NCBI GenBank assembly: GCA_965228855.1
Contig: CBDDIJ010000003.1
Coordinates: 1,024,001-1,088,000 of the forward strand
DNA: 64,000 bases
Source: Candidatus Obscuribacterales bacterium
Lineage (GTDB): Bacteria; Cyanobacteriota; Vampirovibrionia; Obscuribacterales; Obscuribacteraceae
Direction of reading: 5' to 3'
The position numbers and the translations under genes were made by a program. How positions within the stretch are numbered: the first letter of the stretch is position 1; each line of letters begins with the position of its first letter. The notes under the pieces were generated by a model. The model saw nothing but the letters and a program-made list of their open reading frames with translations, was not told the DNA's origin and ran no database searches. This document shows, one piece after another, positions 17,449 to 38,774 of this stretch.

Positions 17449-18381
17449 TTAGTTTTCCTTTGCTTTGAATTGCTCTTGCGTTGCATTCGGGCGCAGGATG
17501 TGCGGCATCTCAGTGATCTTGTCGAGACCGCGCGGGACCGGATGGAAAGGAATTCGATCTAGTCCAACCGAGATACTTCTCGTTGCCGAGTCGCCGATTC
17601 GCTTCATAACGTCTTCAGCCTTACGATTGATGATTTCGCCTTCTTTAAGAACCACGCTTCCATCCGGCTGACGATCGATTCCGCGAAGCGTTGTTTCGCC
17701 GGATTTTGGATCTATAGAGACCGCAGTATTCCCGTGGTTTTCGTAGACCAAGACATTGCCTTTGGAATCCATGGATAATTCGAGACCGCCGCGGGTCTCA
17801 TGCTTGTTGAACTGCTTGTTCAGCTGATCGATATATTTTGAGAGCTTTTCAGGATCGCCTGAAAGCGCTTTTAGGCTCTCAGTTAGCTTGTTGACGTCTC
17901 CATCGATCAGGGCGCCCTGCAACTCGGTCAGCGCCTTTTTGTCTGCTTCGGGCAAGAGTGGGCTGAGTTCCTTCGCCATCATTTCCTTAGCGTTTTTTCT
18001 ATCCTGGTCGGTTACGAAGGGTTTCAGACTGCGTTCCATTTTCTTTGAAAATTCGCCGCTCAGTTTATCCGCGATACCTTCGCCAATTTGCGTTGCGCCG
18101 TGATCCAGTTTCGAATTGTGGTAATCGTTGCCAGCTTTTCCTGCAGCCTTGGCTGCTTGTTCCATTTGTTCGCTGACGCTGCTGCCGCTTTCCAGCTGCC
18201 CGTTAACACCGTTGGATGCAGCTTTTGCGGCGCCTTCAATGGAATTGGCACCGGTGTGGCCGCTCTTCATTGAGTCCATGGCAAAATTAGAGAGATTCGA
18301 CTTGGCCGCTTTGGCGGTATCACCGGCGGTGTCTTCGAAAGTAACGTTGGGCAGTTCAAATGCAGATCCTGACTTCGACAT
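17449..18381 (-). CDS. Hypothetical protein, tandem paralog A
   Basis: 310-aa ORF, GAGGAG RBS; core aligns without gaps to the next ORF. Confidence 0.85.
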   Translation of the reverse strand: MSKSGSAFELPNVTFEDTAGDTAKAAKSNLSNFAMDSMKSGHTGANSIEGAAKAASNGVNGQLESGSSVSEQMEQAAKAAGKAGNDYHNSKLDHGATQIGEGIADKLSGEFSKKMERSLKPFVTDQDRKNAKEMMAKELSPLLPEADKKALTELQGALIDGDVNKLTESLKALSGDPEKLSKYIDQLNKQFNKHETRGGLELSMDSKGNVLVYENHGNTAVSIDPKSGETTLRGIDRQPDGSVVLKEGEIINRKAEDVMKRIGDSATRSISVGLDRIPFHPVPRGLDKITEMPHILRPNATQEQFKAKEN

Positions 18382-18525
18382 AATAATAGTAACTCCTCAG
18401 CAGTGGCACGTTCCGTGACTATATAATCCGATTTTCGCAGCGGCGATCAAAGGTGGGTCTCTGCAGTGCTGCTTGCGTGTTCACGCAGGCCTGAAGTCGT
18501 TCGCTCTCAATAAACGTCCGGAGCG

Positions 18526-18553
18526 AAAAGGGTCCCCTGTTGGGGACCCTTTT
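18526..18553. terminator. Intrinsic terminator (bidirectional form)
   Basis: Perfect AAAAGGGTCCCC-TGTT-GGGGACCCTTTT just downstream of the 18589 stop. Confidence 0.85.
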
Positions 18554-18588
18554 GCTGTGCGTGGGTATGATTGGTCGATCAGTTTCAA

Positions 18589-19557
18589 CTAGCGTGATTT
18601 GTCCGAGAGTTCGTTCATCAACGGTTTGATGTCTTTCGGGAAATCCCATTTTCCGCCGCCGCTGTTACCGCCATCGAACGGGTCTTTCGGGCTCCACGGC
18701 TTGTTAGGTGGAAATTCCGGCATGGGCATCGGCTTGTTTGGGAAACCGGGTTTCCACGGATGTGGCTTGAAGATTGGCTCTTGCAGGCTTCTTGTAGCTT
18801 CGTCACCGAGATTCTTCATGACGTCATCCGGCTTGCGGTTGATTACTTCGCCCGGCTTGAGAAGGACGCTGCCGTCATCTTGACGCTCAACTGCACGTAG
18901 TGACGATTCACCGGTTTTAGGATCGAAGGAAACAGCAGTGTTTCCTTTTTCTCCGTAGACAAGAACGTTGCCTTTACCGTCCATCGACACTTCAACGCCA
19001 CCGAACATCTCGTTCTTGTTCAGGTTGTCGTTCAGTGCTTTGACGAACTTCTCTAGCTTTGCCGGATCTCCCGAGAGACCTTTCAAGGCTTCACCAAATT
19101 TTTTCGTGTCACCGTCGATGAGAGCGTTTTGAAGGTCGGTGATCGTTTTCTTGTCAGCTTCTGGAATGAGGTCGCTCAATTCTTTGCCAAGTTTGTCTTT
19201 GGCTTCAGCTCTATCTTCGGGCGTAACGTCAGCTCTCTTGCTGATGCCGATGCCGATAGCAATTGATCCGTCCTTGGTAAGCTCTTGAAGTTTTTCACCG
19301 ACGTTTCCTTTCGAGATTCCATCGAGGTGTTTGATAGCTTCGCCGCCGATTTCTGCTGCGTTGCCAGCGGAGTTTTTATCGAGAGAATTGACTCCAGTAT
19401 CACCGGTCGCAGATTTGGCAGCTTGCGACATGTTTTTCATTTCATTCATCGCGGCATCAGACAAACTTTGTCTTGCATCGCGGGCGGTATCATCTGTGCT
19501 GTGCGTAGCTTTTCCTACTACTTGTGCTTCAGCTTCTTGGGGGGCATTTTTAGACAT
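18589..19557 (-). CDS. Hypothetical protein, tandem paralog B, Pro-rich C-terminus
   Basis: GAGGAG RBS before MSKNAPQ; shares ALIDGD, LSGDP, KGNVLVY, GNTAVS, INRK and ATRS blocks with paralog A. Confidence 0.85.
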   Translation of the reverse strand: MSKNAPQEAEAQVVGKATHSTDDTARDARQSLSDAAMNEMKNMSQAAKSATGDTGVNSLDKNSAGNAAEIGGEAIKHLDGISKGNVGEKLQELTKDGSIAIGIGISKRADVTPEDRAEAKDKLGKELSDLIPEADKKTITDLQNALIDGDTKKFGEALKGLSGDPAKLEKFVKALNDNLNKNEMFGGVEVSMDGKGNVLVYGEKGNTAVSFDPKTGESSLRAVERQDDGSVLLKPGEVINRKPDDVMKNLGDEATRSLQEPIFKPHPWKPGFPNKPMPMPEFPPNKPWSPKDPFDGGNSGGGKWDFPKDIKPLMNELSDKSR

Positions 19558-19684
19558 TGTTGGGGTTCTCCTCAGCAAGTGCGTTCCTTCCGTGCATTAA
19601 CTATGCAATTTCCCGAGCTGATAACCAATGTGCGATAATGCAAATCGGCTTGCGCATTTACGCAAAGGACCGAAAGAGGGCAAT

Positions 19685-24160: not shown

Positions 24161-25408
24161 CTAGCTTTCTGGAGCGGAAACTGGAGCCTTGATCTCCTGA
24201 TGGAGAATTTGAGCAGGGTTCTGTTCTTTTAGTTTAGCTATTCTTTCCAATAAAACCTTAGGTCCGAACGGCAAAACATAAGTATTTTCATCCGGCTTCT
24301 CATTGTCCTTGACCGGTGGGCTCTCAGTATTGAGCGCGACTATGTGAAAAACTCCACCCTCTTGAGGGTCTACTTGAATGGGGTTCTTGCCGTAACTGTC
24401 GATCACGATATGCTGACCGCTACGTGCGCCACCGTGCTCGGTGCGCATCAAAGGCGGCGGATACAGCTGCAGCGCCAGAGTATTATCAACATAATAGACG
24501 TATATAAAACAATTGACCTTTGGTGTGAGCGTCATTGAGAGTTCCTGGTGGAACTTGTATTTGTCGGTCGGATTGTCGAAAGCCACGTCAACCAGAAACT
24601 CGGGCTTCTGGGTAACGGCCCACTGGTCCTTATATTGATAGGCGAAGATGCCCAGGGTCAGGAAACCGCATGTGATAAACGCGATAATTGCTGGAACCAG
24701 AGAGCCCAGACCAGGCGTGTGAGTCTCAGCCGTTTCCGCTACGCCCAGAGCCATCAGCGCATCAACCGAAAGCGCCATTCGAATCGATGTCGTCGGAAGG
24801 TTCAATCCGGGTAGGGTTGCGGTGTCTCCGCAATGTATCGCTACGACGGATTCGCCGTCGAACAAAGCCGTGCCGGAGTCTCCGGGCGCAAGGGCCAGAT
24901 CGTGCAGAAGATGAAAACGGTCGTTCCGTTTAAGCGGACCCAGATAACTGCCTATCTGAGCAAGCGGAGATAGGGATGTCGTGTAGACACCCAGATGCGA
25001 CGGATAACGAATTGCCGACAAGGTCGCATGTGTATCGACTTCTTTGTCGTAAAGAACAGGCAGAGTGCGAGTGGTGGACTCCGGTTCAATCAGGTCGATG
25101 GTGAGCGCAGCCACATCGAACTTGACCAGGTCGCCTTCGTGTCTTTGAAAACTTGGATGAAGCTTAATGTCTTTTATTACATACCGGTTGCCCGAAGCCG
25201 GAAATTTTACGGTTAAGGCACCGGGAGAGCGCACGAATTGGTCAACCACGTGACCGCAGGTGATGAGCGTATTCGGGGCCGCAATCCATGCTTGACCCAA
25301 AACCTCGTCCTTGTCGCCCTTTGCCAGTACTATGTGCGCCAGCGCTCCGCCGAAGATGTCGGGGTCGCGCGGGAGGCGGCGAAGTTTATTATTAGTCTGT
25401 TGCGGCAC
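24161..25408 (-). CDS. Trypsin-like serine protease + transmembrane helix + DUF4384-like domain
   Basis: Triad ITCGHVV / FDVAAL / PGDSGTAL; one TM (IIAFITCGFLTLGIFAY); C-terminal YKFHQEL...NCFIYVYYVD...QLYP. Confidence 0.8.
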   Translation of the reverse strand: MPQQTNNKLRRLPRDPDIFGGALAHIVLAKGDKDEVLGQAWIAAPNTLITCGHVVDQFVRSPGALTVKFPASGNRYVIKDIKLHPSFQRHEGDLVKFDVAALTIDLIEPESTTRTLPVLYDKEVDTHATLSAIRYPSHLGVYTTSLSPLAQIGSYLGPLKRNDRFHLLHDLALAPGDSGTALFDGESVVAIHCGDTATLPGLNLPTTSIRMALSVDALMALGVAETAETHTPGLGSLVPAIIAFITCGFLTLGIFAYQYKDQWAVTQKPEFLVDVAFDNPTDKYKFHQELSMTLTPKVNCFIYVYYVDNTLALQLYPPPLMRTEHGGARSGQHIVIDSYGKNPIQVDPQEGGVFHIVALNTESPPVKDNEKPDENTYVLPFGPKVLLERIAKLKEQNPAQILHQEIKAPVSAPES

Positions 25409-25524
25409 TTGATTTCCTTTCTATGACTCAAATGCTTGATGATCATTTACCATGTTATCGCAGCCCTCGAGTGTCCAAAATTGCAGCCTATAAAAAGATA
25501 CGGTTTCTGCTAAATTCACAGAAG

Positions 25525-25986
25525 ATGGAAAAGGAAACCGAAAAAACAGTATCAGAGAAAAAAAAGCGGAAAGGAAACATCCTTTTCCTCATGGCTTCCT
25601 ATGTGTGGTTGCCTGTTTCGTTCATCTTGCCGTTCTTATTCACTCACCATATGGCATCTCAGAATTATGTTGCTGATATGCCCGGCCGCAGTAAGTTTAC
25701 ACAAAGTCCGGCTCAATGGCGAGTGGACGAGGCCCGTTCCGAAGCCCTTCGCTCGGGCGTTCTCGGTATGGTCGTCGCTCTCACAATCCTGTTTTTATGG
25801 CGACTGGACAAGGTTATCGTCAAGGACCGCCGTGAGTTGAACAATACCTGGATGGTTGTAGTGCTCGGGTGTTTTGCCGTACTCCTCTGGACTGTCTGGA
25901 CTTGTGCAGGACATCTGGTCCTGCGAGCCTCTGATGAGATCAACTCGGCGCCTGCGCAGCTTCCCGGGTTGGACAGCGGCAATTAA
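25525..25986 (+). CDS. Hypothetical membrane protein (about 3 TM helices)
   Basis: Three hydrophobic segments after a basic N-terminus; start uncertain. Confidence 0.65.
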   Translation: MEKETEKTVSEKKKRKGNILFLMASYVWLPVSFILPFLFTHHMASQNYVADMPGRSKFTQSPAQWRVDEARSEALRSGVLGMVVALTILFLWRLDKVIVKDRRELNNTWMVVVLGCFAVLLWTVWTCAGHLVLRASDEINSAPAQLPGLDSGN

Positions 25987-26015: not shown

Positions 26016-26129
26016 GATCTGATAGTTGATTGAAAGCGGAAGATGTTTGAGGGATGTGACTATTAGCCCTCAAATCATTAATGTTGGCACCGAAATCCGA
26101 TATTATTAGTGACCAATCCCAGCCTTTAG

Positions 26130-27596
26130 ATGTCAGTGCTTTCTAGTAAAACCAAGCTCGAGGAAATTCTCGCTGTTGCTCCTGAGTGGCAGACGACTCT
26201 GGATAGGCTGTCCGGCGAGGCTGTTGCAGCCGGCAAGGATAAAAATATTGCGCCTGTTGAGCTCTTTCAGGGCGTTGGCGCCAAGGCCATTTACTCGAAG
26301 CTCTTGACGCTGGGTCCTGGAACCGACAAATTCGTTGGTTTGGTCAAGGATTGCTACTATCAGCCGCTGTTCGCCAGAATGCTGGAGTGTAATCAAAATC
26401 TGCGTCGCTTCTGGTTTCAGCGCCGTGTGGCTCCCAGCGATCAAAAACACGAAGCTATTTCGATGTCGGTGGAACTGGCTCAGAAACTGGAACAAGCGTT
26501 GTTGAAACAGCTGAAGCTTGGGCAGGATGATGGCTTCAAAGTCTTGCTACCTGCTTACGCCCAACGTTCCGTTCACAACGCAGTTGTCGACCACGTCCGC
26601 AACGAGTGGCAGTGGGAGAAAGACACTCTGCAGGACGTCAATCTCGACCCCGAGCAGATCGATCCGCGCGCCAACGTTGCTGAGGACCCGAAATACTCTC
26701 CGGAGAATCAAGCCCTATCCGGAGAGCAAGTTGGACAGCTTAATCAGCTTCGTCAGAGACTTTCGACGATGTTGAACGACAGGCGATTTGCTCAAGAACC
26801 GCTTGTTGTGGTCGATTGTATGTTCGGAATGGGACTGACCGAGCATTCGAAAGTGGGAACCGAGATGACCATGCGCGAAACCTGCGATGTCCTTGAAATC
26901 AAAGGTGAGACGCAGGCGCGAAAAATCGCTCGCTGTCAGGTTCTTCTCGACAAGGGTCTTGATATGATCCGAGACATGATTCGCCTCGATATGCCTGGAG
27001 TTGCGCAATCCTGGCAGGCTGACATAAACGTTAATTCGGCATCGCGCCGTGAACTCAATCATCATCTTGGTCTGACCGAAGGCGAAGTCGATAGGCTCAT
27101 TGCCGGGCGGCAGTACTACAGCATGGACGAGATGGTCGACCGTCGCGTTCTTCAAGCTCACCGTCTGGGCGAAATCGCCGAAAAGGGTGCTGTGGCAGCG
27201 TTTGTGCCGGTGGACCTCAATGCGGCGACCAGGCGCGACCTCGTGGACATCCTCGGCTGCGACAAGGATGTGGCAAAGAAGCTGGTCGATCTGCGACCGT
27301 TTTGCAGTATGAACGATATCGTCGAGCAAAAGCTGCTCGATAAAAAGGACCTTGAGAAGCTTGTAAACAATGGCGCCGTGCTGAAAGCTGTTGCAAAGGA
27401 AGGCGACCGTTTAAACCTTAATAATGCGGACCAAACCCAACTGAGCGCCCTGGGCTTGACTCAGGACGTTACGGCGCGCTTCCTCAGAGCCCGTCCATTC
27501 CTGACCTGGCACGAGTTAGAGGATTTTCTCTGCATTGATCCGGAGACCTTCCGATCTATCCGGGAAAAATCTTGTTTAACAATTTCGCCGCACTAA
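26130..27596 (+). CDS. Sigma-70/ECF-like protein fused to three ComEA-like helix-hairpin-helix repeats
   Basis: Region-2-like FKVLLPAYAQRSVHNAVVDHVR; region-4-like MTMRETCDVLEI...RCQVLLDKGLDMIR; repeats INVNSASRREL, VDLNAATRRDL, LNLNNADQTQL each followed by R(P/Q)(F/Y)xS/T. Confidence 0.65.
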   Translation: MSVLSSKTKLEEILAVAPEWQTTLDRLSGEAVAAGKDKNIAPVELFQGVGAKAIYSKLLTLGPGTDKFVGLVKDCYYQPLFARMLECNQNLRRFWFQRRVAPSDQKHEAISMSVELAQKLEQALLKQLKLGQDDGFKVLLPAYAQRSVHNAVVDHVRNEWQWEKDTLQDVNLDPEQIDPRANVAEDPKYSPENQALSGEQVGQLNQLRQRLSTMLNDRRFAQEPLVVVDCMFGMGLTEHSKVGTEMTMRETCDVLEIKGETQARKIARCQVLLDKGLDMIRDMIRLDMPGVAQSWQADINVNSASRRELNHHLGLTEGEVDRLIAGRQYYSMDEMVDRRVLQAHRLGEIAEKGAVAAFVPVDLNAATRRDLVDILGCDKDVAKKLVDLRPFCSMNDIVEQKLLDKKDLEKLVNNGAVLKAVAKEGDRLNLNNADQTQLSALGLTQDVTARFLRARPFLTWHELEDFLCIDPETFRSIREKSCLTISPH

Positions 27597-27670: not shown

Positions 27671-28882
27671 ATGAGTAATCGAGTTGAATTTAGCCCTGAG
27701 ATAGTCAGACTGGCTCAGGCGCGAGCCCAGGAAAGTGGCTCGAATCTGGCTAATGAACTTGCCAGATTAGCCGTGGAAGAGGTCATCATGAATGCTGACC
27801 CGGAACTCGACCTGGTTATCGAGTCTGAAAACGCGTTGAGCTCCATCGACTCCGTTGTCGCCGCCGTCGGTGCTAACGATGTCGTGGTGAATGGTCGCCA
27901 TATAGATGTACGTGCCATCGATGAAGACGGTTATGTGGAAGTGTCTAAGGCTCTTGTTGGAACACCGGCACTATCATCGGGAACGCTTGTGGTTGCACTC
28001 GACGGTCGTACGGGCGCGAAGGTGGTAGCACATGTTAAAGCCGGAAGCTGGTTGAATGCCGAACAGGGCACCAGCGATACCGAGCCGGTGCGAGTCGATG
28101 TCGAGCAAGCCGATGATTTCGATGCGGTTGCCACCATCAGTGGTATCTGTCAGCGTGTGCATATTCCGCTCGATAAAACTAAGCTCCCGGAAACAAGCGA
28201 CCTCGAGAAATTTCTCAATCACCCGAGTTCGATGATTTTGGCGCGTCAAAAGCAGATGGTCACGGCGCTTTGTGCGAAGAGTGAGCTGAGAGAGATAGCT
28301 CGCGAAATCAAAGTCGACCTTTCCCGCGGTGTCGTAAACAGGATGCTGCGTGCCGAATCTACCTGGAATCGCCGCACGGAAGAAGTGGTCGACAAATTAG
28401 CTCCTAAATTCAAATCGTTGACTCGCGAAGAATTGAAAAAGCATGTCACCATGACAGGTGAAGAATTGGGAGGTCAGCCTGAAGCACCGGCATTTAGAAA
28501 AGCACTTCTGAAGCGCGTCTCGGCCGACGAGCTCTCGGTTCGCCTTGGCGGCACAGCAGCCAGTAAGGTACGAAGCTTGTACGAACAGATCATCAGCGGT
28601 AAATCTGCAAGCGAGGCAGTTAAGTCGATTATTAAAAACAACGTTGCTGTTGACCTGGCTTCGGCAATCAAAGCCAAGCGTGGCAAAGTCGAAGGCTTCT
28701 TCGCCGCAACGGCGGAGGAAATTGGAGCGGCATTCCAACAACTCGCGTTGCAACCGGCTTATGCGACTCACAGCAGTAAAGATGAAGGCATCGATTCAAT
28801 CAACGAAGCACTCGTCTTACTCGAAGCCGGTGATGTCGCTGAAAGCGTCAGAGCCATGGAAAATGAGCTGATTGAGAGCTGA
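27671..28882 (+). CDS. Hypothetical protein with DUF1822-like N-terminal domain (candidate sigma partner)
   Basis: LARLAVEEV...ANDVVVNGRHIDVRAI...GTLVVALD...AKVVAH resembles cyanobacterial DUF1822; helical C-terminus. Confidence 0.55.
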   Translation: MSNRVEFSPEIVRLAQARAQESGSNLANELARLAVEEVIMNADPELDLVIESENALSSIDSVVAAVGANDVVVNGRHIDVRAIDEDGYVEVSKALVGTPALSSGTLVVALDGRTGAKVVAHVKAGSWLNAEQGTSDTEPVRVDVEQADDFDAVATISGICQRVHIPLDKTKLPETSDLEKFLNHPSSMILARQKQMVTALCAKSELREIAREIKVDLSRGVVNRMLRAESTWNRRTEEVVDKLAPKFKSLTREELKKHVTMTGEELGGQPEAPAFRKALLKRVSADELSVRLGGTAASKVRSLYEQIISGKSASEAVKSIIKNNVAVDLASAIKAKRGKVEGFFAATAEEIGAAFQQLALQPAYATHSSKDEGIDSINEALVLLEAGDVAESVRAMENELIES

Positions 28883-29203: not shown

Positions 29204-30997
29204 ATGAAATCAACGACCTTGAGTCGGGTCCTTTGCAGTCTTATCGTTCTGTTGTCAGGAATCTCTCTCCCCTCACAGGGTGCAACCTCTGAGTCCGGTC
29301 AGAAATCCGAGTCCAGCCAAAAAACTGACGGTCAGAAAAACGAATCCGCTCAGAAGGTTGTGCTTGACTCCATGCACAAAGAATTGGATCGCTCTTTTGA
29401 GAAGCTCAAGAAAGCTGGTGATGCGCCGGTTTACTATCTCGGCTACCGGCTCTATGACGTCGATTCGCTCTATATATCAGGCGAGTATGGTGCGCTCACT
29501 CGCAACGTCGTGCCTGACCATGACCGCATCTTGAACGTTGATCTTCGGGTCGGATCTCCGAAAATCGATAATACGCACCGGTCCCGTGATTCGGACGCAT
29601 TCAGTGTCGTGAGAAGTTCAGCCGGCTCGTCGCGACTGTTTGTTCCACTCGAGAATAACGAACTTGCCCTTCGTCAGGCAATCTGGTTAGAAACCGACGA
29701 CGCTTTCAAACAAGCTCAACAACAGTTTGCTCGCGTTCAAGCCGGGAAGGAAGTCAACGTTACTGAAGAGGATAGCTCGGACGATTTTTCCACGGAGGCT
29801 GCGCAAAAATTCACGGTTGAACCCAAAGCTTTCGATGTCGATCAAGAGAAGTGGAAGGTTATTGTCAAGCGGCTGTCCGCGATCTATAAAAATTACCCTG
29901 AGATTTACGATTCGTCAGTCATCTTCACTGCAAAACTGACCAAGCGCTACCTGGTCAATAACGAAGGTTCGGAGATTGCTGATTCACGAACAGACTATCG
30001 CCTTTACACAATGGCTCAGGCCAGGGCAGAGGACGGTATGGACATGTGGCTATATGATGATGTGGCTGCAGTCAAACTGGATGAGATGCCTTCAGAAGAA
30101 GAGCTCACAAAGCTCATCAACGGCGTCGCGGATAATCTGGTGAAGCTAAGCAAGGCGCCTAAGGCCGATCCCTATGTCGGTCCTGCCATCCTGCGCAGCA
30201 AAGCTGCCGGAGTGTTCTTCCACGAAGTTTTCGGTCACCGAATGGAAGGTCACAGGCAAAAGGATGAGAAAGAGGGCCGCACATTCACAAAACAAATGAA
30301 TCACGAGGTTATGCCGGAGTTCATTAGCGTTCTCGACGATCCGACGCTGAAAACGCTCGGCAATATACACCTTAATGGCTTCTACGAATACGATGACGAA
30401 GGTGTTCCAGCCCAGAAAGTCACGCTCGTCGATAAGGGCGTGCTCAAATCATTTTTGATGTCACGCTCGCCGGTCGAAGGTTTCCCAAAATCAAACGGCC
30501 ACGGACGTTGCGATCCGAAATACAATCCGGTCGCTCGCATGGGCAATTTGATGGTTAAGTCCGAGAAAACCGTTCCATATGAAGACCTCCGCCAGATGCT
30601 CATTGACGAGTTGAAAAAACAGAAAAAGAGTTACGGACTGGTGTTTGATGATATCGCCGGTGGTTTCACGACAACGTCCACTCGAGCAGGTCAGATGTAT
30701 AGCTTGCAGCCACTGATTGTGACCAAAGTATTTGCGGATGGCAGACCGGATCAGCTTGTGCGCGGGGTTAAAATTGTGGGGACGCCACTCACTGCTCTCG
30801 AGAAAATAATTTGCGCTGCCGACGATGATGGAACGTTTAACGGCATCTGCGGCGCTGAATCGGGCAGCGTTCCAGTTTCAGCCTCTTCGCCCAGCCTTCT
30901 GGTCGGTGCGATTGAAGTTGAACTGAAAGAGAAACGCGCGGACAAGCCCCCAATTCTTCCTCCTCCGTTGCTGGACAAGTCGGAGGACAAGAAGTGA
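29204..30997 (+). CDS. tldD: TldD-family metalloprotease with signal peptide
   Basis: FFHEVFGHRMEG (HExxxH), DDPT, YDDEGVPA, SNGHGR, RMGNL, CGAESGSVPV; N-terminal signal peptide. Confidence 0.88.
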   Translation: MKSTTLSRVLCSLIVLLSGISLPSQGATSESGQKSESSQKTDGQKNESAQKVVLDSMHKELDRSFEKLKKAGDAPVYYLGYRLYDVDSLYISGEYGALTRNVVPDHDRILNVDLRVGSPKIDNTHRSRDSDAFSVVRSSAGSSRLFVPLENNELALRQAIWLETDDAFKQAQQQFARVQAGKEVNVTEEDSSDDFSTEAAQKFTVEPKAFDVDQEKWKVIVKRLSAIYKNYPEIYDSSVIFTAKLTKRYLVNNEGSEIADSRTDYRLYTMAQARAEDGMDMWLYDDVAAVKLDEMPSEEELTKLINGVADNLVKLSKAPKADPYVGPAILRSKAAGVFFHEVFGHRMEGHRQKDEKEGRTFTKQMNHEVMPEFISVLDDPTLKTLGNIHLNGFYEYDDEGVPAQKVTLVDKGVLKSFLMSRSPVEGFPKSNGHGRCDPKYNPVARMGNLMVKSEKTVPYEDLRQMLIDELKKQKKSYGLVFDDIAGGFTTTSTRAGQMYSLQPLIVTKVFADGRPDQLVRGVKIVGTPLTALEKIICAADDDGTFNGICGAESGSVPVSASSPSLLVGAIEVELKEKRADKPPILPPPLLDKSEDKK

Positions 30998-32946
30998 TGC
31001 TTAAATTCAAACTGTTGATGAGCGATAAAAAGTTTCAATTAAATTCCAAGGAGACAGGCTTGTCTGAACTTACTTCGAAACCTAAGAGCGCATTGAAGTC
31101 TTCTTTTGCATTTATGCTCGTCGCCGCAGTGGCGTTCTCCACCTGCGTCACGCCAGCGTTAGCAAAGGATAAGAAGAAGAAAGATGCGGCCGAGTCTGCC
31201 ATCGCCCGTGATACCGTCGATAACAAGCCGAAAGTATTAAAAGAGGAAAACGGCAAAATATATCTGTCGAAGAATGAAAACGACGTTCTCTTCGACGCGC
31301 TTACGGACGAGATGAAGCGCTCGGCTGAGAGGTTGAAACTGGGTACGCATGGACTGCCGTACTTCGTTCAATACAAAGTTCTTGAAACCGAGATGCTCTA
31401 TTTGAGCGCCAGTTGCGGCGCACTGACTTCTGAGAACAACACCCACTACAGACGACTCTACACTGATATTCGGGTTGGCGACTACGACCTCGACAGCTCG
31501 AAAGATTCGGGCTCGATGAGTTCTCTGTTTGGACGCCTCTCAGGCAGCGGCAAAGAACTTCCGGTTGAAGACGATTATGAAGCATTGCGGCATGAAATCT
31601 GGCTCGCCAGTGATAGCAACTATAAAGACGCTATTGAGGGTTACGAAGATAAGAAGGCGCGCTTGAGAGCGAAACCGGAAACGGATCGCCTTGGTGATAT
31701 GACTAAGGAAACTCCTGTCGTTTTTATAAAACCCGCTCTAAAGCTCAAGGTCGACGAGGATAAGTGGAAGAAAGTCACCAAAGACCTGTCTTCGATTTTC
31801 TTGAAATATCCGGAAATTGATAATGCGGTAGTTCACTTCAGCTCTCAGGTTTCTAACGCCTGGCTCGTCAACAACGAAGGTTTCAAACATAGAGATGGGC
31901 ATGTACAGACGCTTTTGTCAGTGCTAGCGAAAATTCGGAGCAAAGACGGGCAGACTTATGCGGACGTTGAAATCGTAGCGGCTGAGAGACCCGAGGAGAT
32001 GCCTGATTATGCGGCTCTGGAAGCGCGTGTCGATAAGCTCATTAAGCGGTTGAAACGCACAGCAGAAGCGCCTCTCGTCACTAATTACACTGGACCGATG
32101 TTGTTTGAGCCCGAAGCCTCGTCGTCTCTTATGCACTCAGCTCTGACGAAACTGCTTGGTGGCGCACATGATGTCAGCGGCAGCAGCTGGGGCGGCGACC
32201 ATCCTCTCAAGAACAAGCTCGGCCAGCGAGTCGGCGCCCGGATTATTACCGTAGTTGACGATCCATATGCGACTGAGTTTAAAGGGAAGAAGCTGTTTGG
32301 AAACTATGAAGTTGATGACGACGGCGTACCCGCTGAGAAACTGACCCTGGTCGAAAAGGGCGTGTTAAAGACGCTCTGTGCCAGTCGCAAACCGACGCGC
32401 GGCGTGGCAAAGAGCAACGGGCACTCAGGCGATGGCACGGGCACCGTGAGTATTTTGTTCGTGTCGACGGAACCGTCGATGAACCCGAAACAGATGAAGA
32501 AGAAGCTCATCGAGCTTGGGAAGGAACAAGGGTATGACGATGTCTACATCGTTCGTTCCGTAGCTCGGCTGCCTACCTGGATGTTGAGCCTTGGTTCCAC
32601 TATCTCCAGTATCTTTTCCAGCTTCGGTGGCGGTTTATCCCTTTACCCAACCGAGATCTACCGCGTGTCGGTGAAAAATGGCAAAGAGGAGCTCGTTCGT
32701 GGAGCTACCGTTAGCGTGCAGCCTGCCGATGTTCTGCGCGAGCTGGTTGCAGGTGGTTCAGACGTGACAGCATCTCTAGTGGCTCAAGGACCGACGTCCG
32801 CCACAAGCATCGTCACTCCTTCCATCATTCTGCGTGACGTAGACATCAAGGAGCCGTCCAAAGCGTCTGAGAAATTGCCGGTCGTTCCCAGTCCGGTGAA
32901 GGAACAGCAGCAAGAAGTGAAGGAAGATGTCAAATCAGTGGAATAA
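30994..32946 (+). CDS. TldE/PmbA-like non-catalytic partner with signal peptide
   Basis: YTGPMLFEP, VVDDP, DDDGVPA, SNGH, ELVRG; no HExxxH; GTGA overlap with tldD; PALA-KD cleavage site. Confidence 0.85.
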   Translation: MMLKFKLLMSDKKFQLNSKETGLSELTSKPKSALKSSFAFMLVAAVAFSTCVTPALAKDKKKKDAAESAIARDTVDNKPKVLKEENGKIYLSKNENDVLFDALTDEMKRSAERLKLGTHGLPYFVQYKVLETEMLYLSASCGALTSENNTHYRRLYTDIRVGDYDLDSSKDSGSMSSLFGRLSGSGKELPVEDDYEALRHEIWLASDSNYKDAIEGYEDKKARLRAKPETDRLGDMTKETPVVFIKPALKLKVDEDKWKKVTKDLSSIFLKYPEIDNAVVHFSSQVSNAWLVNNEGFKHRDGHVQTLLSVLAKIRSKDGQTYADVEIVAAERPEEMPDYAALEARVDKLIKRLKRTAEAPLVTNYTGPMLFEPEASSSLMHSALTKLLGGAHDVSGSSWGGDHPLKNKLGQRVGARIITVVDDPYATEFKGKKLFGNYEVDDDGVPAEKLTLVEKGVLKTLCASRKPTRGVAKSNGHSGDGTGTVSILFVSTEPSMNPKQMKKKLIELGKEQGYDDVYIVRSVARLPTWMLSLGSTISSIFSSFGGGLSLYPTEIYRVSVKNGKEELVRGATVSVQPADVLRELVAGGSDVTASLVAQGPTSATSIVTPSIILRDVDIKEPSKASEKLPVVPSPVKEQQQEVKEDVKSVE

Positions 32947-33061: not shown

Positions 33062-33817
33062 ATGGTAAGCGAAACGCCTGTTTCTTACATTCAGTGCCCC
33101 TCCTGTCTCAGACGCAATCACGCTGAGATGCACTTCTGCATCTATTGCGGTGCAGGCGTCACTCCAGAGGCTGAAAGAAAGCGGACCCAGAACCCTCTGA
33201 GCTGGAGGAGCTGCATCCGCTGTGGTCAGACTGATGAGCTAAACCAAAATTTCTGCATCTTCTGCAGCGGAAAGATTGTTGTGCCTGGGGAAGCTCCTGC
33301 GGACACGAATGCTTATCGCAAGTTTAGCTGGGAGTTGGAACAGATCGATGCCGCCAAGGTCATGGATCAGGCAGAGCCAAAGGTTTCCAGGCCATCTCCA
33401 GTCGCAAAGCTGAAACCCAGGCGCAAACAAAAGAACAGCAAGGCTGTTCTGCTCACGGTTTTGCTCGGTGCGATGGGCGTGATGACTGGAGCCGCATTCG
33501 CGTTCCTGGTCGGCCAGGCTGGGTTAGAGCGCATCGTACTACAGTCGACGTCATGGCAAAACAAGCATCTGGTCGTCTACACGAACGTTCCATACGCCAC
33601 GCTTATGATCGAAGACAGCAAAAAGCAAGTCTATACACTCACCCAGACTGGAGCCGACGGCGCCCTGACCATAGCGGAGATGCCGCCGGGGCAGTACACG
33701 CTGTACGTGGGAGCACAGGGCCACTCGGGTGTGAAAACATCTTTCCCGATTCAGGAGCACAGAACGACGGTTTTGGGTTTCCCCAGCCGGATCGATTTGC
33801 CCAAGAAAGCGCGATAA
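33062..33817 (+). CDS. Double zinc-ribbon + TM + PEGA/carboxypeptidase-regulatory-like domain protein
   Basis: CPSC..FCIYCG, CIRC..FCIFCS; one TM; VYTNVPYATL...PGQYTLYV.AQGH. Confidence 0.72.
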   Translation: MVSETPVSYIQCPSCLRRNHAEMHFCIYCGAGVTPEAERKRTQNPLSWRSCIRCGQTDELNQNFCIFCSGKIVVPGEAPADTNAYRKFSWELEQIDAAKVMDQAEPKVSRPSPVAKLKPRRKQKNSKAVLLTVLLGAMGVMTGAAFAFLVGQAGLERIVLQSTSWQNKHLVVYTNVPYATLMIEDSKKQVYTLTQTGADGALTIAEMPPGQYTLYVGAQGHSGVKTSFPIQEHRTTVLGFPSRIDLPKKAR

Positions 33818-33913: not shown

Positions 33914-35335
33914 ATGACAGCAGGTGAAGCTACAAAGACATGCCCATCGTGCGGGAAACATTCTCCGCACGACGCACGCTTTTGCGGATTCGACGGCACA
34001 TTGCTGGACCAGCCGCAGAATACCCAGGGACCAGAAAAAGTATGCCCCAAGTGTCAGCGCGTCTACCCTCCGTATGCTGTTTTCTGCCCGATTGAAGGTT
34101 CTGCTCTCAATACGTCGACCGCAGCTCCGCAGGCTAATAAACCCCACATTCAGGTCGCGGCTGATGGGAAACCGTATTTGCAGTCCGCTCCTCTGGGCAA
34201 GGACAAGGACGTTGATTTCGACCGGCACGATACCGCCCTCATGGATGGTGTGGGCTTCGGACAGTCGCTGCACGACGGCGATGCCGCTATTAATCCCAAT
34301 TTGAATCCGCAAAACCCAAACGCCTCTCACGTCAATTTGCAGGCGCAAAATCCAAATGCCTCGCAATCGCAGTTGCCGGCTCAGCAACCACCGCAACAGC
34401 AGCAGCAACCTGCGCAGCCGCCTGCTGACCCCTACAACGAAGCGCTTGTCGCGACCGGTGGATACACAACCAGTCTTATCGGCAAAACGATCGACAACAA
34501 ATACCTCATCCAATCGATGCTTGGTGAGGGTGGTATGGCGGTTGTTTACAAAGCGCACCATACGATCATGGAACGCACCGTCGTTATCAAAGTTATGCAC
34601 GGTTGGTTGCTGTCCAATGAGAAGTCGATTGAGCGATTCCAGCGCGAATGCAAGGTTACAGCCAAACTCAGCCATCCCAATATTGTCACCGTATTTGATG
34701 TCGGAACCCTGGGCGGTAAGGCACCATATCTGGTGATGGAGTTCATCAAAGGAGAGGCTCTGGCTGACAAGATTCATCGCCAGGGCGCTTTGCCGTTTAC
34801 CACCACAGCGAACATCATTATTCAAATGTGCCGTGGTCTACAGGAAGCACATAACTTTGGTGTAATTCACCGCGACTTGAAGCCGGATAATGTTTTACTT
34901 CAAGACAAGTCGGACAGACCCGATTGGGTGAAGATCGTGGACTTCGGAATTTCCCACATCGTTCATGAAAGCGGAAAACGGCTCACCAAGACCGGCCGCA
35001 TGGTTGGAACTCCGGAATATATTGCGCCCGAGCAATTGAAGGACCGGCCGATGGACATTAGAACAGACCTCTACGCTCTAGGCATCATGATCTACGAGAT
35101 GCTGACCGGTCATGTACCGTTCGAAGGTGATAGCGCCGAGGCAATTCTGATGAAACATCTCATGGACGATCCTCCGCCTATGAGCAAGTATAAGCCGGAG
35201 TTCAAAGATGGGACGCCTTTCGATCACATAGTGATGAAGTTGTTGAATAAAGAACCCGATTTGCGTTATCAAACAGCTACGGAACTCCGGCTGGATGTCG
35301 AGCAAGCACAATCACAGATAATCTTTAAACGTTAG
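33914..35335 (+). CDS. Hanks-type Ser/Thr protein kinase with N-terminal zinc ribbons
   Basis: GEGGMAVVY, VVIK, HRDLKPDN, DFG, GTPEYIAPE, DLYALG; CPSC/CGFD and CPKC/CPIE ribbons; no TM. Confidence 0.95.
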   Translation: MTAGEATKTCPSCGKHSPHDARFCGFDGTLLDQPQNTQGPEKVCPKCQRVYPPYAVFCPIEGSALNTSTAAPQANKPHIQVAADGKPYLQSAPLGKDKDVDFDRHDTALMDGVGFGQSLHDGDAAINPNLNPQNPNASHVNLQAQNPNASQSQLPAQQPPQQQQQPAQPPADPYNEALVATGGYTTSLIGKTIDNKYLIQSMLGEGGMAVVYKAHHTIMERTVVIKVMHGWLLSNEKSIERFQRECKVTAKLSHPNIVTVFDVGTLGGKAPYLVMEFIKGEALADKIHRQGALPFTTTANIIIQMCRGLQEAHNFGVIHRDLKPDNVLLQDKSDRPDWVKIVDFGISHIVHESGKRLTKTGRMVGTPEYIAPEQLKDRPMDIRTDLYALGIMIYEMLTGHVPFEGDSAEAILMKHLMDDPPPMSKYKPEFKDGTPFDHIVMKLLNKEPDLRYQTATELRLDVEQAQSQIIFKR

Positions 35336-35483: not shown

Positions 35484-38400
35484 GTGATTGCCAATCGCAG
35501 TAATCGATTTTGGGCTTCTTCAGTGAGTTTGTCTCTGGCGGTGGTTCTCGCTTGCGGAATCGATGCGTCAGGTTTTGAACTTGGTCCAACGGTTTCTGAC
35601 ATCAGCAAGGTCTATAAAGCTCTTGATGCGGCTCGGAAAAAAGGCGATAAGGCCGAACAGGCCAATTTGTTGTATACCCTTGGTGATCTGGAATTACAAA
35701 AGGGCAACAGCGAAAAAGCAGAAGAGCTTCTGCGAGAGTCGCTGAAACTGGACGAGGAAGCCGGTACTGGAGTTACAAAAAACTCAGGCGGAAAATTTTC
35801 GCCGTCGGTTCACACTCGTATCGCGCTTGCGGCTGTGGCTATTAAACTCGGACGCGCTGAAGAGGCTCTCAAACTCTATGAAGAAGCCGCTGTCAATGCG
35901 GAAAAGCTAAATCTCGAAGAAGAGTCGATCACGATTAACAAGCAACTAGGAAGCGTTTATTTAAACGCGCGCGAGTTTGGCAAAGCCGAAGCCAGTCTCA
36001 ATAAAGCTAAGCTGGCAGCCGAAAAAGGCGGACACAAGGATATCCAAATGTCTGTGCTTTCAGAGCTTGCATCGCTTGCCCGTTATAAACGTAATTTCGA
36101 ACTGGCAATCGAATATTTGAAACAAGCAGTCGCACTGGTAGACGATCAAACTGATGAACTGGACGAAGGGCGTATCCTGACTGAACTTGGACGAACCTAC
36201 GCAGACATGGGCTTGAATGACAAGGCCGTCGAGTACTACGAAAAGTCTAGCAAGGTTTACTCCAGTGGCGGCGATCGAGTCGCTGAGGCGGAAGTTCTTA
36301 TCTCGATGGCCGAACTCGACCTTTCAAATCGTAAACCGGATGAAGCACTTGCGAGATTGAAAAACGCTTTGAGCTCTCTCGAAGGAGAAGATGCACCTAA
36401 AATTCTTGCTCGATGCTACACGCGTATCGGCTCTGCTCAAGCGGATACAGGCTTGATGGAAGAAGCTTTGAAGAGTCACAAGAGTGCTGAGAAGTTAGCT
36501 GCAAAATGTAAGAGTGAAGAGGAAGAGTGTCTGGCGATCACCGAGCAAGGCTACGATTATCTGCTGGAGGGTAAGTCGGAAAAGGCTCTGGGAGAGTTTC
36601 TCCGCGCGCAAAAGTATATTGAGAAGCATCCGAATCTCCGGCAATCTGAACGTGCCGATGTTCTCAAATACTGCGCCATGGGTTACAGAAACGTCGGTCA
36701 ACCGAAGACTGCTATTCGCTACTATTTGGAAGCGACGCAGTTGTACAAGAAAGCCGGCAAGTTCCTCGACGAAGCACTGGTGCTGGACTCTATTGCTGTT
36801 GCCTATCTTGACCAGGGGTCTTCTGCACTGTTTGAAAAATATCACGGACAGGCGAAAGAAGTTTTTCAAACTGCCGTTGGTAAATCGGCGAGCAACAGTG
36901 ATAAACGAGCGCAAGCAACCATGTCTTACAACTATGGACAGTACTGCGTCATGAAAAGCATGTATGCCGATGCAATCGAGGCTTATGAACAAGCGCTGAA
37001 CACATCTCAGTCGATCAGCGATACGCTAGGCCAGTGTCAAGCTCTTCGCGGGTTGGGCATGACCTATTTGCTTCTCGGTCAAAACCAGAAGTCGCGCGAG
37101 AAATTTGAAGCCGCTTCCACCATCGCCGATAAGGTTACGAATATTGAGAGCCAATGGGACTGTGCCGCTGGTCTAGGCAAGGTTTATATGAAACTAGGGG
37201 ACCAGCAAAATGCCGAAAAGATGCTACTGAAGGCGGTATCACTTGCTGATAAGGAAAGAAGAAATCTATCTCGTGATAGTTTTAAAACTGCGGCGCTCGA
37301 CTTGCGCGAAGATTGTTTTTTCGACCTTGTTGAATTGATGATCAACAACAAGCGTTACGACCAGGCACTTGAGTATGCTGAGAAAGGTCGAGCTCGTGCG
37401 TTTCTCGACATGCTCGAGGGGCGTAAGCAAACCAGCTACGGCCAGCGCAAGATTGCTTTGTCTGCTCCTGATTTGCTGGATGAAGCCGGACTGACTCCCC
37501 TTGCCGCGCCGGAAGAAAAGCCGGTACAAATTGCAATGGCTAATGTGCCAAGCGGAACTTTTCGTGGAGTGCAAGTCTCGCCGAAAAGCCCTACAACAGT
37601 GGTCGAAGCCACCGTGCTTTCCGCTGCTAACGCTAAGCCTCCGGACTTGCAAGAAATTAAATCGCTGATCAAGGGATGCAATACCTGGGTGGTTGAGTAT
37701 CTCGCGATGCCGGAAAAGGTAATTGTGTTCGTGGTGAAACCGGACGGCGAAATCGCTGATGTGAAGATAATCTCTGAGAAGATCGATACGGTTAAAAACC
37801 TGATTCGAGAGACCCATAAGACCATAACCACATCACCGAAAGGCATGGATGAAGTTCACGCCTTGAACAAAGCTCGCCAGGAAAATCTTCGGGCGTTGCA
37901 CAAAATGCTGGTTGAGCCGATCGAAGCTCTGCTGCCCAAGGACGAAAACCAGGTTGTTACGATCGTTCCACACGGCTCTCTGTTTAGTGTCCCGTTCGCT
38001 GCTCTGGTGAATGGAAACGGCAAATATATGATTGAGCAGCACACGCTTGCATACCTTCCGGCAATTGGCGTATTGCGCGCCACTCAGTCCGTTGAGAACC
38101 AGACGAAGGGCGAGAAAAATTCTCTGCTTGCGTTTGGTAATCCCATTACTGAAATGAATAAATTCCTTGGCAAATTGCCTTATGCAGAAAAAGAGGTCAA
38201 GAAAGTTTCTTCCTTGTTTGACCAAAGCAGCGTTGCAGTAGAGGTCGGTGGCGCGGCAACAAAGTCTAAATTCCGTGAATTGGCGCCGAAGTACAGTTAC
38301 ATACATCTGGCGACGCACGGATTGGTTAACCAGGATCAACCGATGGATTCTGCGGTGGTGCTGGCACCAGAAGCGGGCGATGATGGTTTACTTACAGTGA

Positions 38401-38774
38401 AAGACATTCTTCAGCTGCCACAGTTAAAAGCTAAAATGATCGTTCTTTCCGCGTGCCAAACCGGTCAAGGCAAAATCACCGGTGATGGTGTCGTCGGTTT
38501 ATCGCGAGCTTTTGTGATTGCAGGAACTCCGTCCGTTCTCGTGTCGCTCTGGAGCGTAGATGACGTGATGACCGAGTATCAGATGGAGTCGCTCTATTAC
38601 GAGCTTTTGAAAGGGGCCAACAAAGCTCAGTCGTTGCGTAAAGCTCAAATTAAAACGATAAACTTTCTGGAGAAAGGTTCCTCAGGGCGCGATTCCGATA
38701 AGCCAGTTAAACAGGAAGATCGCGCAAATCCTAGATACTGGGCGGCATTCCAAATGATCGGCGAATACAATTAG
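35484..38774 (+). CDS. TPR-repeat + CHAT (caspase-like) protease with N-terminal export signal
   Basis: Many TPRs; EKGRARAFLD, IVPHGSL, HLATHG (His), LSACQTG (Cys), VSLWSV, PRYWAAF. Confidence 0.93.
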   Translation: MIANRSNRFWASSVSLSLAVVLACGIDASGFELGPTVSDISKVYKALDAARKKGDKAEQANLLYTLGDLELQKGNSEKAEELLRESLKLDEEAGTGVTKNSGGKFSPSVHTRIALAAVAIKLGRAEEALKLYEEAAVNAEKLNLEEESITINKQLGSVYLNAREFGKAEASLNKAKLAAEKGGHKDIQMSVLSELASLARYKRNFELAIEYLKQAVALVDDQTDELDEGRILTELGRTYADMGLNDKAVEYYEKSSKVYSSGGDRVAEAEVLISMAELDLSNRKPDEALARLKNALSSLEGEDAPKILARCYTRIGSAQADTGLMEEALKSHKSAEKLAAKCKSEEEECLAITEQGYDYLLEGKSEKALGEFLRAQKYIEKHPNLRQSERADVLKYCAMGYRNVGQPKTAIRYYLEATQLYKKAGKFLDEALVLDSIAVAYLDQGSSALFEKYHGQAKEVFQTAVGKSASNSDKRAQATMSYNYGQYCVMKSMYADAIEAYEQALNTSQSISDTLGQCQALRGLGMTYLLLGQNQKSREKFEAASTIADKVTNIESQWDCAAGLGKVYMKLGDQQNAEKMLLKAVSLADKERRNLSRDSFKTAALDLREDCFFDLVELMINNKRYDQALEYAEKGRARAFLDMLEGRKQTSYGQRKIALSAPDLLDEAGLTPLAAPEEKPVQIAMANVPSGTFRGVQVSPKSPTTVVEATVLSAANAKPPDLQEIKSLIKGCNTWVVEYLAMPEKVIVFVVKPDGEIADVKIISEKIDTVKNLIRETHKTITTSPKGMDEVHALNKARQENLRALHKMLVEPIEALLPKDENQVVTIVPHGSLFSVPFAALVNGNGKYMIEQHTLAYLPAIGVLRATQSVENQTKGEKNSLLAFGNPITEMNKFLGKLPYAEKEVKKVSSLFDQSSVAVEVGGAATKSKFRELAPKYSYIHLATHGLVNQDQPMDSAVVLAPEAGDDGLLTVKDILQLPQLKAKMIVLSACQTGQGKITGDGVVGLSRAFVIAGTPSVLVSLWSVDDVMTEYQMESLYYELLKGANKAQSLRKAQIKTINFLEKGSSGRDSDKPVKQEDRANPRYWAAFQMIGEYN

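Follow-up and report, generated by a model that had tools for sequence, protein, structure and literature searches.

Neighbourhoods in which an ECF sigma factor is accompanied by a DUF1822 protein and a caspase were catalogued by Kaur et al. 2021 (PMC8195603), who label DUF1822 a TPR protein and whose supplement file 3 lists, at row 360, a neighbourhood with caspase+DZR+DZR+kinase. HetZ is co-transcribed with its inhibitor PatU3, which is bound by the extra domains of HetZ (PMC13342950). ECF sigma factors touch the beta-prime subunit through the motif DxxDxxQE (PMC13147305), and in ECF43 the loss of these acidic core-binding residues is repaired by phosphorylation (PMC8999054, PMC13147305). 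PhyR is a sigma mimic that titrates NepR (PMC8999054), and HhH domains typically reach DNA phosphates via backbone nitrogens (PMC9747964). The comparisons made here apply to the available portions of these sources.

The 64,000-nucleotide stretch of Candidatus Obscuribacterales DNA analysed here (the window) carries a variant of the catalogued ECF-sigma/DUF1822/protease modules, since the partner gene is linked to DUF1822, with a protease, a kinase and a TPR-CHAT gene recurring nearby. Its sigma-like protein, a very divergent relative of the subunits that direct RNA polymerase to promoters, bears three helix-hairpin-helix (HhH) repeats.

The sigma-HhH gene and its distribution

26130..27596, plus strand: 488-aa sigma-70-like protein ending in three HhH repeats; GTG 26136 is its likely start
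26277..26630, plus strand: predicted sigma domain 2, residues ~50-167
26433..26519, plus strand: region 2.2-like helix, residues 102-130, acid-poor
26622..26729, plus strand: acidic linker, conserved, residues 165-200; net charge -6.8 on average; low pLDDT at 161-200
26700..26999, plus strand: predicted sigma domain 4 with helix-turn-helix, residues 191-290; the protein's most conserved part
27015..27200, plus strand: HhH repeat 1, residues 296-357; best-conserved repeat, with an acidic hairpin and invariant S305, R306, R307 and E308
27201..27389, plus strand: HhH repeat 2, residues 358-420
27402..27584, plus strand: HhH repeat 3, residues 425-485

The open reading frame on which the original prediction was built is real, and every motif quoted for it is present in the 488-aa translation. 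Homologues mostly start at residue 3 of this frame, so the GTG at 26136 is probably, on sequence grounds, the true conserved start. Databases name the homologues 'ComE-like' or 'GspK', names that mirror the tail only and not the sigma part. There is no membrane anchor: in a hydropathy scan over 19 residues, no hydrophobic segment exceeded 1.7. A possible activator site was seen by eye upstream of the gene (26046-26109): a short motif common to the genus, always 39 nt ahead of a -10 hexamer of housekeeping type.

A protein search gave 220 matches among 8000 candidates scored. Nearly all of the 120 matches listed span the full length, with identities of 50-100%; the organisms named among them are mostly Melainabacteria or Obscuribacterales. 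The gene was present in 21/24 genomes of the same family vs 0/16 from other families. Among 85 genomes of the order, each at least 80% complete, 77 carry it, one copy each: this genome and 76 of the 82 others of the family, with 0/2 in the sister family. This single-copy presence suggests that the protein is probably a core regulator of an uncultured, non-photosynthetic family. Across 300 phylum-wide genomes only HhH-sized pieces matched, and a search for shorter relatives found no tail-less form, its 27 matches resembling fragments of the family.

The sigma-like core and the HhH tail

Pfam and NCBIfam scans of the window protein gave no sigma2/sigma4 match, and there was none among the Pfam matches listed for 32 homologues, where the single Sigma70_r3 match (E 0.029) lies on the HhH segment of one of them (P0110). 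Of the Pfam families by which the original prediction proposed to check the protein, HHH_3 is therefore found in the tail and Sigma70_r2/r4 is missing from the window protein. The relationship emerges from orthologues cut to residues 68-292 and scanned against NCBIfam (n=35). TIGR02937 matched 19/35 at E<=1, the best match having a library-wide E of 9.3e-8 over a colinear stretch of 157 residues running from sigma2 to sigma4; its 31.9 bits lie below the curated cut-off of 42.9, and the window protein itself gave no match. The CASP-sigma model NF041236 matched 18/35 (best E 2e-5), and a non-sigma model, yjeF, also matched 12/35 (best E 0.0065). An ECF HMM gave a median of 5.6 bits for 122 family members vs -0.8 for reversed sequences.

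The original prediction staked itself on a sigma2/sigma4 fold in the N-terminal part, and a fold search with the predicted structure returned sigma2 and then sigma4 domains in the correct order; the top Foldseek ranks are nearly all sigma chains. The model contains both the helical bundle of sigma domain 2 and a C-terminal sigma domain 4 helix-turn-helix, and the region-2-like and region-4-like segments read by eye agree with this search and with the orthologue matches to sigma models. The N-terminal part is almost certainly homologous to sigma-70 factors, and highly divergent; that the protein still acts as a functional sigma factor is probable. The domain 2 region includes a predicted helix from about residue 42, which aligns at the place of region 1.2 in group 1 sigmas. 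As in ECF sigma factors, the predicted structure has no folded domain 3 and a short linker. The acidic linker would sit at the position of the ECF sigma finger, and its residues 168-190, acidic and conserved, are modelled as a low-confidence loop with one short helix. Conservation is highest in the sigma4 helix-turn-helix (0.80) and the acidic linker (0.75), as would be expected if promoter and polymerase contacts remain in use.

The core-binding helix departs from the ECF pattern. Its S111 and K119 never vary across the family, and E/D115 is found in 121/122 members; the two best registers place either S111 or E115 at the conserved Asp of DxxDxxQE, so the register is ambiguous. The 8-residue motif window holds one acidic residue in 117/122 or 106/122 members, depending on the register, vs three in 28/35 ECFs, and the acidic motif of canonical ECFs was not found in the family (n=122). 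One register gives a charge reversal in this helix. The conserved Thr of ECF43 (third place, QTTA) was not found either: in one register position 114 is Thr in 21/122, and in the other the site holds Ile/Leu/Val, with the invariant S111 fourth. Because this Thr is not conserved, the likeness to ECF43 is one of analogy, not membership. As both the TIGR02937 cut-off and the acidic motif fail, we place the protein, which is ECF-like by anatomy, outside canonical ECFs and any ECF group.

The tail carries the three ComEA-type repeats that had been predicted. Pfam HHH_3 matches the window protein in three stretches (E 1.4e-15, 57.6 bits, cut-off 27), and the model shows three units of the same secondary structure (~299-360, 361-421 and 428-482) with the ComEA-type HhH fold. 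The DNA-contacting backbone nitrogens of HhH domains belong to the glycines of the hairpin. The ComEA G-h-G hairpin is kept in 0, 7 and 4 of 122 members in repeats 1-3, vs 257/280 repeats in 105 outgroup proteins. The original suggestion of a sigma factor whose availability depends on binding DNA thus keeps its sigma homology, while its DNA-sensing half is weakened by the loss of this hairpin. The tail may be mainly protein-binding, a reading to which we give slightly less than an even chance, and the whole protein is likely to switch transcription under the control of a signal, not to take up DNA. An HHH_3 search of the genome did not find ComEA; its only other match (L040, G000:C3:394983-398177) is a protein that we take to be Tex-like.

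The partner gene and its neighbourhood

27671..28882, plus strand: obligate partner gene, candidate anti-sigma; ~403 aa, no membrane segment, a DUF1822-related N-domain followed by helices

The partner occurs in the same 77/85 genomes as the sigma-HhH gene and is adjacent to it in 39/39 loci. For its N-domain (27731-28165) a PD-(D/E)XK-like fold is predicted, in which Arg takes the place of the catalytic Lys. Pfam PF08852 (DUF1822) did not match the partner in its own genome, nor is it among the 25 families listed for 97 members, and the homology to DUF1822 is established through bridging proteins only. Among 41,079 genome ORFs and the test sets, the partner profile finds only itself and seven DUF1822-N proteins of another family (E 1.1e-7 to 6.4e-3; hhalign probability 81, E 1.2e-5); the DUF1822-N genes of that family lie beside a clear ECF sigma in 12/14 loci. 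A motif that we defined from the fetched sequences, D-x(8)-(D/E)-x-R, is carried by 13/13 bridging proteins and 16/30 cyanobacterial DUF1822 proteins; in the partner, D69 is kept in 83/97 members, and D78 and R80 in 97/97. It seems rather likely that the partner binds the sigma-HhH protein.

In another family (f6, L121-L132, for example L132:1159-8005, minus strand), a protein of ~1000 aa has a DUF1822-type N-domain, a long acidic linker, a likely membrane segment and a TonB-C-like end. Next after its gene come those of an ECF sigma and of a zinc-ribbon protein that has an ATPase-like motif, a set that looks like a transmembrane anti-sigma module.

Neighbours were counted over 39 loci, some of which stop at contig edges.

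22837..24078, minus strand: DUF4384 protein, 27/39 loci
24161..25408, minus strand: trypsin-like protease, divergently transcribed; motifs intact, one membrane segment (residues 237-255); 36/39 loci
25423..25986, plus strand: small membrane protein, three segments; 21/39 loci
29204..32946, plus strand: TldD/TldE-like pair inserted inside the module, hydrophobic N-termini; 4/39 loci
33062..33817, plus strand: double-zinc-ribbon membrane protein, 28/39 loci
33914..35335, plus strand: double-zinc-ribbon Ser/Thr kinase; no membrane segment, catalytic motifs intact
35484..38774, plus strand: TPR-CHAT caspase-like protease, BLAST match in 19/39 loci

The TldD/TldE-like pair is probably not part of the module. 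The zinc-ribbon kinase lies downstream on the same strand in 28/39 loci and is never adjacent to the sigma-HhH gene. The His and Cys motifs of TPR-CHAT are present in 12 of its 19 loci, the other seven being cut at the locus edge. Its N-terminus (35484-35580) looks by eye like a signal peptide and was unflagged by the hydropathy scan; if TPR-CHAT were exported, the cytoplasmic partner would be out of its reach and the trypsin-like protease would be favoured. The conserved neighbours are membrane and envelope signalling genes, not genes of DNA repair or uptake, and they include no recognisable CRISPR or CBASS gene. Farther off, 17449-19578 holds two tandem similar ORFs (310 and 329 aa) without a Pfam family.

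Proposed mechanism, alternatives and known systems

Our preferred mechanism starts from the architecture, the homology of the orthologues to sigma models, the constant company of the partner gene, and the protease and kinase genes that recur nearby; each binding and catalytic step that follows is one we infer. The predicted ECF-like sigma2-linker-sigma4 core would serve as a conditional alternative sigma, restrained by the DUF1822-related partner as anti-sigma and turned on by a neighbouring protease or kinase. To this picture, in which the partner holds the sigma until proteolysis or phosphorylation switches it on and the tail serves for docking or inhibition, we give about an even chance. 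Since the core-binding helix is without two of the three usual acidic residues, the unmodified protein may bind core polymerase weakly until it is modified. The zinc-ribbon kinase might phosphorylate the invariant S111, a candidate switch suggested by analogy that we regard as tentative and on balance unlikely. The membrane trypsin-like protease or TPR-CHAT might cut the partner anti-sigma. The tail would be mainly a docking or auto-inhibitory module, not a ComEA-type DNA receptor.

The strongest alternative, itself doubtful, is that the protein is a functional sigma whose tail binds nucleic acid through a surface other than the ComEA hairpin. It could be a DNA tether until release, as originally predicted, or a grip just upstream of the -35 element, where the alpha C-terminal domain of polymerase normally sits, and the nuclease-like domain of the partner would be a nucleic-acid sensor. 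However, the hairpin is lost in all three repeats, with an acidic one in repeat 1, the partner carries Arg at the expected catalytic Lys, and the conserved neighbours point to membrane and envelope signalling rather than DNA repair or uptake.

Somewhat less probable again is a sigma-derived protein that no longer loads polymerase, either a partner-titrating mimic or a repressor or activator using only the sigma4 helix-turn-helix. The acid-poor core-binding helix, with its charge reversal in one register, would fit this, as would scores under all sigma cut-offs, an insertion of ~3-7 residues ahead of the region 2.4 aromatic and an extra helix at 89-97. HetZ, however, is a true sigma despite large insertions (PMC13342950), both domains and the acidic linker (0.75) are conserved together here, and the genes conserved around 19 clustered loci include no recognisable second sigma gene.

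It is improbable that nucleic acid is an input to a family-wide, hitherto undescribed transcription switch, with the PD-(D/E)XK-like domain of the partner and the HhH tail sensing or holding DNA or RNA and the kinase licensing polymerase binding via S111. Were it so, double control would act on a sigma whose own repeats bind nucleic acid, and DUF1822 would define a class of anti-sigma factors with a nuclease fold. That an unrelated helical domain and helix-turn-helix resemble a sigma by chance is very hard to reconcile with a library-wide E of 9.3e-8 over 157 colinear residues, the forward and reversed ECF HMM scores, two separate domains matching sigma2 and sigma4 in order, and a partner whose homologue elsewhere is the neighbour of a clear ECF sigma.

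The sigma and its partner, two soluble proteins with one candidate phosphosite, suit a reconstituted system. The fusion was not found in the literature searched, nor in the available main text and supplement of the ECF classification PMC7826278, which agrees with the original impression of an undescribed architecture; three HhH repeats add a type of C-terminal extension to those found there. The predicted sigma/DUF1822/protease modules now extend to non-photosynthetic relatives of cyanobacteria, and the DUF1822-type N-domain gains a predicted fold, PD-(D/E)XK-like.

As in the systems of PMC8195603, a DUF1822-related gene comes directly after that of a divergent ECF-like sigma, and the surroundings include proteases of the caspase-like (CHAT) and trypsin kinds as well as zinc-ribbon kinase components; function is predicted in both. 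Unlike those described there, the sigma here bears three HhH repeats, the partner is a soluble protein whose helical C-terminal half is of another kind, CHAT belongs to a gene of its own (TPR-CHAT) that some loci lack, and the pair is single-copy and near-core in one non-photosynthetic family. ComEA, the DNA-uptake receptor (PMC9747964), differs in that our protein has no membrane anchor, a degenerate hairpin and a fused sigma core. With ECF43 EcfP/EcfK the protein shares the loss of the acidic DxxDxxQE residues (PMC8999054, PMC13147305), and a candidate counterpart of their Hanks kinase gene lies downstream in part of the loci. The differences are that Thr is not conserved at the ECF43 site, that our locus encodes a putative anti-sigma, and that the kinase, without a membrane segment, is lacking in 11/39 loci.

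In HetZ/PatU3 of Anabaena, too, a strongly divergent ECF-type sigma has extra domains and an inhibitor encoded with it (PMC13342950), the role for which our partner is the candidate here. The HetZ insertions are not described as HhH in the available text of that paper, and the partner differs; HetZ/PatU models did not appear in the NCBIfam scans of the family, and HetZ, whose structure may postdate the library, was not among the fold-search matches listed. The CASP-sigma/Csx30/Csx29 and PCc-sigma/PCk/PCaspase sets (bioRxiv 10.1101/2023.06.23.546230) also combine a sigma, an inhibitor and a CHAT protease, with a kinase in one. On the CASP-sigma model, however, our orthologues score <=24 bits among the matches listed, vs a cut-off of 100, and the locus has a vertical, single-copy distribution and no recognised CRISPR/CBASS genes. 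On the portions of these papers available, HetZ/PatU3 and the CRISPR-linked sigma/CHAT sets are functional analogues.
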